DNA of 64,000 nt. Origin: Eledone cirrhosa. Taxonomy: Eukaryota. The DNA is taken from the NCBI GenBank assembly GCA_964016885.1, contig OZ024741.1:148986001-149050000 (forward strand), read 5' to 3'. Shown in pieces: positions 505-64,000 of this stretch (the first letter of the stretch is position 1; the number at the start of each line of letters is the position of its first letter). A program made the translations under genes and the position numbers. The notes beneath the pieces are model-generated. The model saw only the letters and a list, made by a program, of their open reading frames with translations, searched no databases and was not told the DNA's origin.

Positions 505-638
505 TATGCAAAAGTTTTATTTAAAATTGTTGGGTTACAACAAGTAAATATTTTATAACTGATATAAAGCACTCGACAAGTTTTTGGAGTAGATATACGA
601 TATTAAACAAATGGAAACTATATTTATAAAACCATATT

Positions 639-704
639 TATTTCATTATACATATTTCAGGGATACCATATTAAAAATATGGCATGCCTTCGTCAGATAA
701 AATA
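639..704 (-). ncRNA. Type I hammerhead ribozyme (AUA site) in a non-coding cassette at ~505-905
   Basis: Minus strand reads tattttat CTGACGA aggcatgccatatt-ttt-aatatggtatccct GAAA t-atgt-a TA atgaaata. Stem I is 8 bp, stem II is long and stem III is minimal. Confidence 0.8.
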
Positions 705-960
705 CAATATATAAACAGTTTTATAAATAATTTTGACGTAACTTATTATAAGCGACCATTATATTTGGAAGCTGTCTGGATAGTGATTTGTTTATAATTA
801 TTTAGTTATAGTGTTAAGCACAGTTAGAAAAAAGACGGAGAGAAAGAAATATATATATAAATAGATAGGAGGAAGTGAAAAAGAAGTGAAAAAGAAGTGA
901 AAAATTTATATATATATATATATATTTATTCAGTCATAGGATTTTAAACCAATACCGAAT

Positions 961-3100
961 ATGGATAAATACCCTTTGGACTACTCTGTAAAGAATATCC
1001 CAACACCTTCTAACACTCTCTACACGAAAATACTGATAGACAAAGTAGAGAAGGTTGTTAAAAGAATGAGATGGAAAGCTTTGATTCTCGATGGTCAATT
1101 TAACACGGATTCTACGGAATACTTTGACATCAAAACTCACAAATACCCGCAAAGAGTAAAAGATATGACCGCCTTTGAATTAGATCTAGTTAACCTTATC
1201 AACAACATCAATTTTCGTAAGTACTCTAACCCCTTTCAATCCAAATTATCTAATGATATTTCTACTTTCAAATCTTCTAATAATAAGTTCATCTTCTCAG
1301 ATAAAACTAAAAACCTATATGAAGTTAATAATAATTTACACGACCAACTATTAATAGATAATATCACCTCTAAATACCAAATAGCTAATATAAATACGTA
1401 CTATAATATAAATAAGGAAGCTAAAGAATTAGCTTTTTCTTTAAAAATAGATAATAGGACAGAAAAACTTGCTAAACGTTCTGCGTATATCACCCTTAAA
1501 GATCATAAACCCGACTTTATTAATCGCCCTAGTTGTAGATTAATCAACCCTGCTAAGACTGATATTGGTCTTGCCAGTAAAAAAATTTTAAATAAATTAA
1601 ATACACACATTAGAAGTAAGTCTAAATTACTCCAATGGATAAATAGCTCTTCCGTAGTACATTGGTTTAATAATATTAAAAACAAAATCAGTTCTAGATT
1701 CACCCAATTCGATATCGTAGATTTCTACCCATCTATTACTCAGACCCTTTTAGTGAAAGCTTTAAATTTCGCTAGAGGGTTCACTAATATCTCCGATATT
1801 GAAGAGGATGTAATCTTGCATGCTAGGAACACTCTACTTTTTAATGATAATGACACTTGGGTAAAAATATCTAACCCAGAGAACCCATTCGATGTCTCAA
1901 TGGGCTCTTATGACAGTGCCGAGGTTTGTGATCTGGTCGGCCTATTCCTCTTACATACACTTAAAGAAAAATTTCCTAACCATATTTTTGGGCTTTATCG
2001 CGATGATGGTCTAATACTTTCCCCATACCACCATAGGCCATAACTTAGATAGATTAAGGAAAGACTTAATAAAAACCTTTGCTAGTTTTAATCTTAAAAT
2101 TACTATTGATACTAATCTTTCCAACGTAGATTTCCTAGATATAAACTTAGATTTGCCTACTGCTTCTTATAAACCATACCATAAACCTAATGAAAACTTA
2201 AAATATATTAATAAAGGATCTTGCCATCCACCTATAGTTTTTAAAAACCTTATCCCTAATATTAGCCGTAGGATCTCCACCCTCTCTTCATCAGAAGCTA
2301 TTTTCAACAAGGCATCCCCCTACTATAATAAAGCCCTCCAAAATAGCGGCTTTAGCGAACCGATTAAATACATACCTAACTACACTAACTCTATTAAACA
2401 TAAAAATAGGAAAAGAAAAATAATCTGGTTCACACCCCCCTACTCTCTAACAGTTAAAACTAATGAAGGCAAAAAATTCCTAGAACTCCTAGATAAACAT
2501 TTCCCTAGAACACATAGATACTATAAGATCTTTAACAGAAACTGTGTTAAAATTAGCTATTCCTGCGGTCCCCCTATTAAGTCCTATATCCTCAACAAAA
2601 CATCACCTAGAGAAAATCAAACTTGCTCCTGTAGAATCAAAAGTGAATGCCCATTACAAGGTAAATGCAACACCAAAGCCATTGTATATGCGGCTAATGT
2701 GACAACTATCAGCAACAACCATCCAGTCACCAGTGAACGATATGTGGGTATGACGCAAGACAAATTCAAAACGCGTTATTACTCACATGTCGCATCCTTT
2801 CGACATCCAGAAAAAAGATTTACAACAGCTCTGGCTAGCAGAATCTGGGATTTGAAAGACCAAGGCATCCAATATAAACTAGATTGGTCAATTTTGAACC
2901 AATCTAAAAAATATGCTAGAGGAACAAGAAAATGCACGCTCTGCATAAATGAAAAATTTTGGATATTGCAAAATCTCAAATCACCAAAGACCTGCCTGAA
3001 CACAAAGACGGAAATTTTTACCAGTTGCCCACACATGAAATCACACCTGCTTTCCAGCTCATATAAACTTAACACACTTTCAGACACTTATCCTCCATAA
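961..3100 (+). mobile_element. Penelope-like element ORF (RT + C-terminal GIY-YIG endonuclease), about 712 aa with a single +1 frameshift near 2017-2040
   Basis: RT motifs QFDIVDFYPSI, SMGSYDSAEVCDLVG and YRDDG, then VDFLDINLDL in the next frame. Cys linker CSCRIKSECPLQGKC, GIY-YIG motif IVYAA...YVGMT...KFKTRY..H, and CTLCINEK. Confidence 0.93.
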
Positions 3101-4323
3101 ACTCTGATTATTCTCTTTTTAATTACCCTTTCTGACTTACTTTCATTCTTATCCTTGTCAATAATTTCATTTATTTTCACTTTTATTTATTTTTTTATTT
3201 ATTTTTACTTCACCCCCCCCCCCCTTTATTCTCCGATCCACTTCCTATTTTCTATTTTTTACTTCCCCTTCTTTTACTTCCCTTGTTCCTCTACTAACTG
3301 ATTATATACTTGTCTTTTGTGTTCTTCAATCCAGATATATTTTTCATTTTTATTTTTATTTTATTTTTGCGCAGCCTATCCTACAATTTTATATTTGTAT
3401 TTATTTATCCACATTTCAATATGGCTGAACGCCTTAATGTGTGTATACTTTTTTTACATATGTACATGAGTGACTACGTATGTGCGTGCATGTATGTGTA
3501 TATATATATATATATATATGTATATGTATATGTACGTGTATGTATGCGTGTGTGTACTGGTGTTTGTGTGTGTGTGTGTGTGTATATTATGCGTATGTGT
3601 AAGTGTCTTTATATCCGTGTTTTTGACATTTCGGTTTTATATTTTTTTGTTTCTTTTTTCTCCCCCCCCCCCTTCCCTCTTTTGTTACTTACCCAGTTTC
3701 ATACATGGGCATGCAAACAGGTTTAATTGCGCGAGTATAAGTATGTGTATGTGTGTGTGTGTATGTACGTATCGAACGTATGGAAGTGTAAGTGAGCGTG
3801 TGTATATAAGCATAATTATTTTTACATTTCTTTTGTGAGACACGCGTGTCTGTGTATGTATGTACCCCGCTTTTTTTGTTTTCTTTAATTTTTTCTTTCT
3901 ATCTTGTCTTTCTAATTTATCGTTACTATATTTTTATAAATATATCGTAATAGATACTTTTCTTTTATTTATTATACTCTCTTTATCTCCTTTCTTTCTG
4001 CATCTTAGTGTATGAGTGTCCAGGCGTTTTTATGCGCGCGACTTTATTTTCTTATTTTTACGAAGTAACCATTTCCGTCTGTATAATACAGACATATAGA
4101 TACATTTGCCCTAAACTTTTATAATTACGCACACTTTCTAACCATACATTTACACGTGCACATATACATATATGCACATCTATGAGCGTATATACATACA
4201 CATACACACACCTAACTATTTTTCTTGATAGATTTTTATATATTTCAATTTCTATTTCATTTATCTATATATTTTTTTTTGATTTTCTTGATGTGTTTTT
4301 CTAAGTATTTGCCCATGTTTTAT

Positions 4324-4401
4324 ATTGCCTCGTCTGACGAACGAATGAAGTCGTTTATTTCGTATTCGCCTCATTCGCGAAACCTCTGGTAATGAGGTAA
4401 T
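4324..4401 (+). ncRNA. Type I hammerhead ribozyme (GUA, cleavage after 4391) in the 3' pLTR/UTR of the 961-3100 PLE
   Basis: attgcctcgt CTGACGA a-cgaatga...tcattcg-c GAAA cc-tct-gg TA atgaggtaat. Stem I is 10 bp including G-U pairs. The element runs into (TA)n at ~4503. Confidence 0.88.
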
Positions 4402-62413: not shown

Positions 62414-63499
62414 TAGTATCCTCGTTGGATTATCTTGTTGACATAGACGTGAGGGAAGGTCCCTCGATCTATTTACCATCTATTTACAATATTCCTTTCG
62501 TCAGGTCGCCAATTCCAGTAGCATGGATTAAAGATGTTATTGAGACACGAGTAACATAACAACGACTTCAACCGCAGTAATTAGAGATGAAATGTTTGTT
62601 TATTTATATGGTTGAAGTTACAGATACAAAGAGGTTACAAAATGGAATGTGCCATTGCGCCGTTAAGCCGGCGAGGCTAGTGGTGCAATATCTCACTGTT
62701 ACATTATGCGTGTTGCTGGCTCGAAGTTTCTGGTACAAGCTAGAGATTCTTCAAATCTTCGCGGGGAATTTCTTCCTCAGGGCGCGTAGGGATACATCCT
62801 CTTCTACTGGCGCTGATTGGCTGAACTGAGCCAAATCACGCACAGAGAATGTATGTGAGCCCGTGGAATGTAGGTCACTACAAATGGAATAACAACAACC
62901 ATACCCAAACAAAAATACTGACTTAAGAGAAATATAAATAAATAAATAAATAAATAAATAAATAAATAAATAAATATATACACAAGTACAATAACAACAA
63001 ACACATATAAACACACACTAGTACATAAAGGTAGAATACAAAAACCAAAACACATTCACTCAAATGCGAACACACATACCAAACATTATACACACACGCA
63101 AACGCATGCGCAGAGACGGAGACAAAAATAAATATATAAATAAATAAAATAAAAATGGCGTGAACATTACAATACAACACAATAGGAGGGAACATGATAA
63201 TAGTACCACTGATGATGTTGCAAAAGAACTTTGTTAGAGTATATATATATATTTATATCTGTATTTTTAACCGATAGTCAGTCAATGATAAACATTGATT
63301 GCCAAATAAATTAACTATGGAGATATAAAATATGCAGAGGCGAAAACCAACCAAACAGTGAATGTGTTATGTTATTATTTCTGGCAATGTTAACACTATG
63401 ACCCTCCCCAAGTATAACAATATATATATATATATATATTATAAAATAACAGGAAGCTGAACTGGTGTAATTCCTTAAAGGTTTATTATACTATGAACA

Positions 63500-63687
63500 A
63501 GGGCGGTGGATTGGCAGTATCGGTAGACGGTCAGACGCCATGCTTTGGCGTATAGAGTTACGGCCCTTGCCATTCTCAGTTCAAATCCCGCCGAAGTTAA
63601 CCTTGCCTTTCATCTTTACGGGGTCGATAAAATAAAATACCAGTAATGCACTGGATTTTTGCTGCCCTTGTGCCAAAAGTAGAAACA
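63500..63687 (+). mobile_element. Full-length tRNA-SINE with 15-bp TSD
   Basis: TSD attatactatgaaca at 63485-63499 and 63688-63702. Confidence 0.92.
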
Positions 63688-63690
63688 ATT

Positions 63691-63748
63691 ATACTATGAA
63701 CATTTCAATGACCGGGTTCAGTATGAATCCGGTGACATCGTCAGGTAT
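63691..63748 (-). ncRNA. Type I hammerhead (AUA), homolog of 35209-35266
   Basis: atac CTGACGA tgtcaccggattc-atact-gaacccggtcatt GAAA t-gttc-a TA gtat. Confidence 0.8.
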
Positions 63749-64000
63749 TCGAATTTTAAGAAAGGAAGTTGAAAAGGCAGAGACAAAAAGGCGACCACAC
63801 ATTTAGCAGTTTTTAGTTCGGTCGGCCACCTTCAAATGACGACTACCAATTCTTCTTATGTCTTTCTGGTGAAGAGGCGTAAGCTTATAGTGTACTACTA
63901 CCACTCCGTCATGGACAGAGGCTAGCAGTGGGATCAGGTTACATTGAAGTTGGTCAGAAGTGATAAAAGTACTAAGAAGTATATTTTTTCAAAAAACATA

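Follow-up and report, generated by a model that had tools for sequence, protein, structure and literature searches.

The predicted hammerhead ribozymes scattered through the stretch of Eledone cirrhosa DNA analysed here (64,000 nucleotides, hereafter the window) probably, at odds of roughly 80%, mark the 3′ ends of Penelope-like elements (PLEs) that insert into (TA)n and belong to many families, mostly of the Hydra clade, and the ends of ORF-less derivatives that likely make use of the Hydra protein. Copies that likely broke off during reverse transcription account for the short cassettes. The parts are of known kinds, and what is new is their scale and a testable cis signal.

Hammerhead motifs in the window and in the genome

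A single descriptor (stem I of at least 4 bp, C[CT]GANGA, a paired stem II, GAAA, stem III and UH) finds 14 type I hammerhead folds in the window, and all 14 have by this descriptor the attributes of the type (CUGANGA and GAAA boxes, UH and three helices, open at stem I). Core residue C3 lies at 696-, 4334+, 5007-, 7632-, 7648+, 10857+, 14129-, 34000+, 35262-, 38033-, 39444+, 44866+, 45255- and 63744-, on the strands and at the places first listed in an earlier note on this DNA, which had claimed about 14 complete type I motifs and proposed a shuffled-sequence control; 100 dinucleotide shuffles in 500-nt blocks give a mean of 0.08 matches and a maximum of one, and the claim stands. The descriptor was relaxed on this same window in three steps, its strictest form finding 3 motifs, the next form 10 (shuffle mean 0.02) and the form with variant boxes 13 (shuffle mean 0.39). 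An Rfam search, which the note had also proposed, failed to recover them: hammerhead families account for none of the 128 matches in the window at E≤10, and motifs that are invisible to Rfam are therefore missed by ribozyme and repeat annotation of cephalopods.

The partial or degenerate motifs noted earlier are of several kinds. Those at 4875 and 58561 are 3′ halves, and the complete core of their family reads UUGANAA (U3-A8 covariant); that at 53872 belongs to the 45213 family and has decayed, those at 40769 and 59288 are minimal hammerheads with a 2-bp stem I on Neptune-type elements, and that at 10010 has both boxes and lacks stem I. The one at 39625 is no hammerhead; the hammerhead-like core of that element lies instead at 39884- and 40417+, with a stem I of at most 2 bp.

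Many folds in the window are non-canonical, with a U4C core in 3 of 14, a mismatch at 10.1-11.1 in most, and a stem II of up to 115 nt; MFE z-scores range from -4.6 to +0.3 among the 12 motifs folded. The frequency of U4C and of the 10.1-11.1 mismatch would suit a reading of the motifs as structural signals only, with no cleavage in vivo and the fold kept for protein binding or as a pause for reverse transcription, as would the weak cleavage by published PLE hammerheads, the cleavage of just one of nine frog retrozyme dimers in a published test and, in the available part of PMC11167929, an insertion reaction in vitro that did without cleavage. We nevertheless judge this reading rather improbable, because the catalytic boxes and UH are preserved across at least 23 stem types, including an exchange of C3-G8 for U3-A8, which fits selection on the catalytic fold, and because stem III is palindromic (perfectly so in 116 of the 163 that are six nt long, with 8 different palindrome sequences), which fits cleavage as dimers. 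The question concerns the role of the ribozyme, and either answer is compatible with the element anatomy proposed below.

Sampling suggests that predicted hammerheads of this kind are abundant throughout the genome. In 59 arbitrary 10-kb stretches there are 66 matches against 0.8 in shuffles, or one per 9 kb, which extrapolates to about 3.3×10^5 hammerheads genome-wide (2.2-4.5×10^5), and Hydra coding sequence makes up about 2.5% of the sampled DNA. The density of the window exceeds the genome mean only about twofold (resampling gives P about 0.05), so that its description as a special 'archipelago' does not hold. The estimate is about 2.6 times the published axolotl count (126,247) in a genome of about one-tenth the size, and compares with 2,000-9,000 per genome in the accessible text on PLE hammerheads (Cervera and de la Peña 2014, PMC4209133). 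What that text describes is otherwise similar: many consensus families per genome with the core alone in common, copies that are mostly single and truncated, pairs on opposite strands separated by 100-700 bp, a palindromic stem III and a U3-A8 covariant; unlike the hammerheads there, those here have G10.1-C11.1 in a minority (59 of 315). The literature searched holds no report of hammerheads in any cephalopod genome; the supplements of PMC8557442, which list Hydra families, could include octopod ones. Neither 'ribozyme' nor 'hammerhead' occurs in the main text, the part available, of a paper on Octopus vulgaris repeats (PMC13282606).

Penelope-like elements and their ends

By their sequence features, 6 of the 10 families (9 of the 14 motifs) appear to be 3′ pseudo-LTR (pLTR) ends of Hydra-clade PLEs, with RT-GIY-YIG ORFs inside the window (Table 1) or in longer copies elsewhere. 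The genome-wide copy searches, which covered families A, C1, C2, D, E, F, H, I, J and K, each return the best 40 of 500-4,300 candidates and are thus biased samples for links and lengths. Among the matches listed, an ORF is reached in 3 of 30 loci of family A, 6 of 7 long copies of family D and 12 of 25 loci of family K, and lies upstream in 3 and downstream in 1 of 30 loci for families F and I alike, and upstream in 13 and downstream in 2 of 30 for C2; locus L306 of family A also has one upstream. The earlier note had tied only four families to an ORF and held most to be ORF-less; this has to be revised, as in other copies of A, D, F and the 4875/58561 family Hydra-type ORFs lie 0.8-3.9 kb upstream or just downstream. 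The cassette at 37787-39525 is the truncated 3′ UTR of a Hydra-type element.

Table 1. Hammerhead-bearing elements and related fragments in the window. Clades are assigned by motif; hammerheads and cut sites are predicted.
Element	Position	Strand	Description
Family A	508..905	-	5′-truncated 3′ end (pLTR and tail) of Hydra-clade PLE; hammerhead 639-704, predicted cut after 647; tail stem 571-590
Family A	8100..8260	.	Rearranged fragment lacking a complete hammerhead
Family B	926..4502	+	Near full-length Hydra PLE, (TA)n tracts on both sides; RT-GIY-YIG ORF in two frames, 940-3100, with RWK, DKT, CxCx5C; hammerhead 4324-4401; tail stem 4433-4453
Family C2 fold-back	4739..4933	.	Hydra PLE end; two 3′ halves of U3-A8 hammerhead, broken in stem II
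Family C2 fold-back	58521..58700	+	58561 partial; tail stem 58630-58653
Family C1	4947..5016	-	Copy reduced to hammerhead alone, 4963-5013
Family D fold-back	7293..7851	.	Very young Hydra PLE end; hammerheads 7490-7641 (-) and 7641-7788 (+), 115-nt stem II; left arm stops at site 2, right arm at site 1
Partial hammerhead	9935..10110	-	Both boxes, no stem I; short fold-back
Family E	10760..11179	+	Truncated monomer of 630-nt ORF-less tandem unit (non-LTR retrozyme); hammerhead 10851-10931, 7-bp stem III
Family F	13981..14200	-	3′ end of older Hydra PLE; hammerhead 14033-14136
Family G	32714..34302	+	5′-truncated Hydra PLE; GIY-YIG frame 32714-33487; hammerhead 33996-34107; tail stem 34165-34228
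Family H	35164..36030	-	Truncated copy of ~2-kb ORF-less circularly permuted unit; hammerhead 35209-35266
Family H, second copy	63440..64000	-	Hammerhead 63691-63748; another repeat inserted just 3′ of predicted cut site
Family I1 fold-back	37787..39525	.	Hydra PLE 3′ UTR; hammerheads 37991-38037 (-) and 39440-39486 (+), U4C core
Family I2	45176..48840	+	Decayed Hydra PLE; ORF remains about 45750-47560; inverted end bears hammerhead 45213-45259 (-)
Family I2 end	53814..54098	+	Decayed core (53872 partial)
Family J fold-back	44148..45112	.	~500-nt ORF-less circularly permuted unit, split by another repeat; hammerhead 44858-44935 (+); tail stem 44199-44224 (-)
Family K fold-back	39593..40663	.	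End of ORF-bearing PLE resembling 61646-63420; hammerhead-like cores 39884- and 40417+, stem I at most 2 bp
Family K	61646..63420	+	Truncated PLE; GIY-YIG frame 61646-62413; decayed hammerhead-like core at 63209
Neptune-type PLE	40680..44080	-	Cx4CxxC linker; minimal hammerhead, core at 40799
Neptune-type PLE, second	59190..61600	-	Minimal hammerhead, core at 59317

Families A, B, C2, D, F, G and I are placed in the Hydra clade from motifs rather than from a tree of reference proteins, and all seven combine a hammerhead in the pLTR with insertion at (TA)n. The Hydra marks (RW[KR], DKT and the CxCx5C linker) occur in each: RWK, DKT and CxCx5C together in B, D, C2 and I (with DKP in I2), RWR and the linker in A, and the linker only in the truncated F and G. 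A single ORF with RT followed by a C-terminal GIY-YIG is intact in one copy of family D (locus L297, an 830-aa open frame with a pLTR on each side) and present in frameshifted pieces in B, A and I. Pfam recognises the GIY-YIG of family G at E 0.002, and over 32 frames missed the Hydra RTs. The elements at 40680-44080 and 59190-61600 are likewise attributed to the Neptune clade by linker and minimal core rather than by tree, the Neptune linker (Cx2-5CxxC) preceding GIY-YIG in the first copy and the minimal core being present in both. Families D and I1 are very young, with copies that are 99-100% identical, one with an intact ORF, and offer a ready system for studying how inverted repeats and tails arise in PLEs and what the ribozyme contributes.

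The layout read from these elements is pLTR (with hammerhead), tail, ORF, long UTR, pLTR and (TA)n. The earlier claim of insertion targeted to (TA)n is upheld by matches from the arbitrary stretches, 41 of 46 of which have (TA)5 within 300 nt downstream as against 31% of control positions. The 5′ ends vary, and the 3′ ends fall at two fixed sites (break points) per family; in 73 of 77 classifiable fold-backs there is one arm at each site. Hammerheads and (TA)n insertion have been reported for the Hydra clade (Craig et al. 2021, PMC8557442), and the part of that report available describes further features that recur here, namely the C-terminal GIY-YIG, RWK, DKT, the CxCx5C linker, hammerheads lying in pLTRs, copies that are 5′-truncated or inverted, and a tail on one end. 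The differences are of number and size: 21 Repbase families and a few more are given there, as against at least 8 in one 64-kb window; its elements are generally under 3 kb and those here reach about 7 kb, with UTRs of 1.2-3.9 kb; and tails measure 30-40 nt there and 65-170 nt here.

The shortest cassettes suggest another reading, in which most cassettes are independent, ribozyme-only mobile elements of 70-200 nt with fixed ends of their own, as the earlier note leaned towards. Copies of C1 are often a hammerhead alone between (TA)n tracts, and the top C2 matches all resemble a 180-nt unit; however, the queries used favoured short forms, fold-back junctions vary from copy to copy, and both families have longer forms, so that we hold this reading to be very unlikely. 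C2 as a fixed 180-nt hairpin element was rejected since it also exists as a full Hydra element, and C1 as a closed 135-nt circle enclosing (TA)n was rejected since forms of at least 600 nt exist; among the matches listed, neither an ORF link nor a closed circle is found for C1 in 60 loci.

ORF-less closed units

Three families appear, from the arrangement of their copies, to be ORF-less, circularly permuted units: E (630 nt), J (~500 nt) and H (~2 kb), which would make them non-autonomous PLEs or retrozymes. The earlier note had inferred a population of ribozyme-bearing PLE ends or non-autonomous elements and proposed a genome-wide copy check between solo units and PLE ends; both kinds are present, with six families ORF-linked and C1 neither, and non-autonomy was overstated, only E, H and J being closed and ORF-less.

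Family E repeats in tandem without an ORF, and successive units each contain a complete hammerhead, as in retrozymes. Among the matches listed, 10 of 30 loci show a period of 582-637 nt; tandems that contain two hammerheads occur at 3 independent places, and there are 6 same-strand pairs among 35 cores. The family forms head-to-tail dimers and trimers, its longest ATG frame is 53 aa, and its predicted circle is well paired (z -4.4). No second break point was seen for family E. Of the sequencing runs with this family none is listed as RNA, and the three contig sets represent one sample, of a kind not on record. Among the matches listed, family J has a period of 490-541 nt in 8 of 30 loci, and 4 of 7 long copies of family H have the tail joined to what lies 1.7 kb upstream. 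Because H and J form partial tandems only, lacking the hammerheads in consecutive units, we file them as retrozyme-like non-autonomous PLEs, and as none of 26 J cores and 37 H cores in the sampled loci belongs to a copy with two same-strand hammerheads, circle release is only a possibility for these two families. All three families have PLE-type ends (pLTR, tail and inversions) without an ORF. An RT frame beside H in locus L300 belongs to an unrelated LINE past a (TA)n tract, and H as a LINE end was rejected.

With 6 of 10 families proved ORF-linked, and the link for D emerging only with 9-kb stretches, one could suppose that all cassettes are dead truncations or local duplications of autonomous PLEs, that E, H and J derive from the UTRs of elements with ORFs still to be discovered, or are satellites made by unequal crossing-over, and that nothing moves in trans; local tandem amplification from PLE ends is indeed proposed in the portion available of bioRxiv 2026.07.22.740005. 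Two observations make this unlikely in our estimation. In E, H and J the sequence past site 1 continues unbroken into the stretch upstream of the hammerhead, leaving no room for an ORF, and each has more than 2,000 candidate copies, which lie on many contigs in differing surroundings and stop at fixed sites next to (TA)n. We thus favour ORF-less derivatives that would use a Hydra protein, and units lying beside a likely helper make a direct test of retrozyme mobilisation possible.

A PLE origin has been proposed for non-LTR retrozymes (Cervera and de la Peña 2020, PMC7229834; bioRxiv 2026.07.22.740005). As far as the accessible parts of these two sources go, the units here resemble them in being ORF-less with one type I hammerhead per monomer and, for family E, in the head-to-tail dimers and trimers. 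They differ in not forming long arrays, being scattered instead in (TA)n with PLE-type ends and fold-backs, in the size of H, which exceeds the reported 51-972 bp, and in their likely partner, here Hydra.

The tail stem and a proposed route of insertion

Between the two fixed sites, 8-12 nt past site 1, an RCUC...GAGY stem is found in 12 of 14 families (shuffle mean 0.24, maximum 3), some of which are related to one another, by a pattern defined after the data had been seen; it is absent in 2 of the 14 tested representatives, and 3 further families (x3, x5 and x7) have no such pair. A-U/G-C exchange in the stem has a Fisher P of 0.01. With dozens of unrelated families in one genome, a shared signal becomes readable by comparison, and this stem is a candidate signal for the element's protein.

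By analogy with an anole PLE studied in vitro, the RT-GIY-YIG protein would bind RNA at the tail, perhaps through this stem, and cut both (TA)n strands, and reverse transcription would start at site 1 on one DNA end and at site 2 on the other, with uncleaved or re-ligated RNA as template. Often it may stall within or just beyond the ribozyme, giving head-to-head pairs or cassettes of 70-600 nt. Tandem transcripts would be the substrate of the ribozyme, which would work mostly as a dimer formed through the palindromic stem III and release unit-length RNA, which for family E would be a 630-nt circle. Linear cleaved RNA was rejected as template, since the 5′ ends, which are BLAST edges and may reflect subfamily divergence, show no pile-up at the predicted cut site (7 observed against 9.7 expected), their peak lying inside the ribozyme.

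A wider proposal, which we offer tentatively and hold to be possible rather than probable, is that this octopod genome has more hammerheads than any other on record (about 3×10^5, one per 9 kb) because one cis signal serves both Hydra-clade PLEs and a guild of RNA circles of up to 2 kb that lack an ORF, the RCUC...GAGY stem, which would position a dimeric RT-endonuclease so that cut (TA)n ends are primed from two fixed RNA sites. If true, it would account for two features of PLEs in general, the inverted pLTR and the tail on one side, and would supply a minimal signal for sending cargo RNA into (TA)n.

The anole element is PAc, of another clade (Poseidon), from Anolis (Frangieh et al. 2024). 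In the available part of that study (PMC11167929), reverse transcription begins at two internal sites bounding the tail, AT-rich DNA is cut on both strands, and uncleaved RNA is the template. The two sites bounding the tail and the AT-rich target recur here, as read from sequence alone. The PAc start sites are used alike on both strands, lie in an AC-rich loop and are not homologous to the target, whereas here there is one site per fold-back end, with the shared stem between them, and the sites fall at TA-like sequence.

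Hammerhead motifs in the window and in the genome

Fourteen complete hammerheads had been claimed for the window by the earlier note, and the final descriptor (a C[CT]GANGA core whose stem I has 4 bp or more) recovers the same 14 at the same positions and none besides, against a mean of 0.08 and a maximum of 1 in 100 block-shuffled controls. The strictest hand descriptor finds three motifs, tolerating long stems and a basal mismatch in stem II raises this to ten, and adding variant boxes to 13. An Rfam scan, suggested as a check, gave no hammerhead model among its 128 matches to the window at E≤10. 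Twelve motifs were folded as lone RNAs (z −4.6 to +0.3), and in several the hammerhead is not the lowest-energy fold, as is expected with a short palindromic stem III. Judged on sequence, the predicted hammerheads are a real observation, of known kinds.

The seven incomplete motifs of the earlier note fared variously: two are 3′ halves from a family whose full core is UUGANAA, two are minimal hammerheads on elements of the Neptune type (a clade of Penelope-like elements, PLEs), one is decayed, one lacks stem I, and that at 39625 is rejected, there being no hammerhead there. In all five family K copies shown, the two catalytic boxes are kept and stem II pairs perfectly over 7 bp; stem I is at most 2 bp at the three positions tabulated, and these cores may be atypical hammerheads or another fold.

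We surveyed stems in 315 distinct descriptor matches from fetched loci, among which copies are not independent; at least 23 stem types recur three times or more. The descriptor requires only the closing pair of stem III, and among the 163 stems III that are six nt long, 116 read as perfect palindromes, representing eight different sequences (153 self-pair if G-U is permitted). This fits the dimer cleavage proposed in the available text of PMC4209133. In families E, J and C1 stem III is a true hairpin, so that monomer cleavage is predicted to be possible; published PLE hammerheads, in the text available, are often weak cleavers.

The unchanged descriptor was also applied to 59 stretches of 10 kb at round coordinates of the 3.0 Gb genome (589.8 kb in total), giving 66 matches, two of which share one 5′ box, against 0–3 in 20 shuffles (mean 0.8) and none in reversed sequence. 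This is one predicted hammerhead per 9 kb, or 3.35 × 10^5 genome-wide (bootstrap 2.2–4.5 × 10^5), a figure that leaves out U3-A8 and minimal forms; without the matches whose stem III is 1 bp long, which made up 7 of 47 among the first 40 stretches, the estimate is 3.0 × 10^5 (1.9–4.3 × 10^5). The window's 14 motifs lie in the upper tail of the genome sample (P about 0.05). Published counts, in the text available, are 126,247 in axolotl, more than 6,000 in a coral and about 5,000 in a mussel, with 2,000–9,000 minimal motifs in fluke, coelacanth and frog (PMC4209133). The literature searched, with incomplete coverage, holds no report of hammerheads in cephalopod genomes, and this genome-wide load of predicted motifs is new here. 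At least two further repeated U3-A8 families occur among 23 mixed matches, a set without shuffle control. A repeated small U3-A8 hammerhead with a CCGG stem III, often in opposite-strand pairs, is seen at three loci (L311, L341, L342).

Hydra elements and ORF-less units

Searches of the genome with ten cassette-end queries yielded 522–4,316 first-look candidates each, which are lower bounds; the best 40 per query were scored and 25–30 fetched, a biased sample. Among these best-scoring loci, 3′ ends are fixed at (TA)n and 5′ ends variable in all families searched. The earlier note tied only four families to a PLE ORF, which is too few: B, G and I2 have ORFs inside the window, and A, D, F, C2 and I are ORF-linked elsewhere. 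In the best-scoring loci the ORF start is reached in 3 of 30 for A (the same ORF lies upstream in L306), of 30 F loci three have the endonuclease upstream and one has a downstream ORF, ORF-type coding sequence lies upstream in 3 of 30 and downstream in 1 of 30 for I, and 12 of 25 fetched K loci have an ORF link. A second search with the upstream part of C2 gave upstream links in 13 of 30 and downstream in 2. In six of seven long D copies the ORF lies 3.4–4.8 kb upstream, and one locus (L297) runs from a pseudo-LTR with hammerhead through the tail, an open frame of 830 aa and a UTR of 3.9 kb to a second pseudo-LTR. The encoded proteins contain RW[KR], DKT and CxCx5C, which the available text of PMC8557442 gives as marks of the Hydra clade, with its hammerheads and (TA)n insertion. 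By these marks and the ORF links, nine of the 14 motifs are assigned to Hydra elements, and the extent of the predicted Hydra radiation is new here. A family A element with rearranged UTR and identical flanks recurs along contig 18 (L005, L006, L009, L010, L012, L026, L030), likely through segmental duplication.

The comparison of cassettes across the genome upholds ORF-less units for E, H and J, putative non-autonomous PLEs or retrozymes; most cassettes are Hydra PLE ends. E is a 630-nt unit (longest ATG frame at most 53 aa) in partial or full tandems at 10 of 30 best-scoring loci, with six same-strand hammerhead pairs at five loci in three independent places; its monomer folded as a circle has z −4.4 against 40 shuffles. 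In J the sequence past the usual 3′ end is that upstream of the hammerhead, with a period of 490–541 nt (8 of 30 best-scoring loci), and in four of seven long H copies the tail is joined to sequence 1.7 kb upstream, which makes the unit about 2 kb long (longest stop-free frame 117 aa). No copy with two same-strand hammerheads occurs among 26 J and 37 H cores. C1 has forms of at least 600 nt with internal repeats and starts in simple repeats, and neither ORF link nor circle closure in 60 loci. A 592-nt tandem at L320 (600–2400) and L331, of three units each with a U3-A8 hammerhead, plus an inverted copy, represents a further putative retrozyme-type family.

Copy ends and the shared tail stem

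Copies of each family end at two fixed points, sites 1 and 2, for example at 50 and 140 nt from the predicted cut site in A, 20 and 100 in C2, 70 and 210 in D, 55 and 200 in H, and 180 and 270 in J. The 83 head-to-head pairs include 77 that allow classification; in 73 of these one arm stops at the first site and the other at the second (a few may be counted twice where loci overlap). Only 7 of 197 incidental copies start within 4 nt of the predicted cut site, against 9.7 expected; 59 start 20–50 nt upstream of it, within the ribozyme itself, and the starts of 189 fall within 230 nt. The available text of PMC11167929 describes a PLE protein that in vitro cuts both strands of AT-rich DNA, starts on uncleaved RNA template at two internal sites bounding the tail, and assists the ribozyme. 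The genomic ends agree with this behavior, and go beyond what that text showed in one respect, new here: the head-to-head pairs suggest that each DNA end of the insertion would be primed from a different fixed site. Our confidence is high in the element anatomy and moderate in the mechanism. The interrupted (TA)n is mirror-symmetric around some head-to-head copies (L031, L033, L051, L056), and such tracts may be extended during insertion.

In most families RCUC stands 8–12 nt past site 1, and a closing GAGY 12–104 nt further on. This stem, a pattern set after inspection of the tails, is present in 12 of 14 representatives against a mean of 0.24 and a maximum of 3 in 2,000 shuffles. Its R-Y pair is A-U in seven and G-C in four, with one exception (Fisher P 0.01). 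The C1 representative lacks the stem, yet most C1 copies have it; it is absent from three other families. A predicted tail stem common to families is new here. E, H and J all share it, the best evidence for their probable mobilisation by Hydra proteins.

Other features of the window
Feature	Position (strand)	Observation
Family K cores	39884 (−), 40417 (+), 63209 (+)	
Long (TA)n tracts	5082–7292, 7851–8401, 11190–13333	Regular single-base interruptions
Head-to-head end of another family (x4)	13640–13790	Tail stem present, hammerhead absent
Small repeat	13845–13960	Between (TA)n tracts; accompanies many loci from other families; contains no recognised hammerhead
Short, very frequent repeat	21909–22044, 24509–24705, 44516–44800, 48665–48839, 63500–63692	Inserted at ATT/ATAT sites within PLE ends, including one position directly 3′ of the hammerhead at 63691
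Intact single-exon GPCR	27652–28854 (+)	Sole host gene seen; 80% identity to nematocin receptor 2 of Octopus bimaculoides and O. sinensis, which points to an octopod host
Two decayed APE-RT LINE copies	49282–57174	In tandem, ~3.8 kb apart, 79–86% alike
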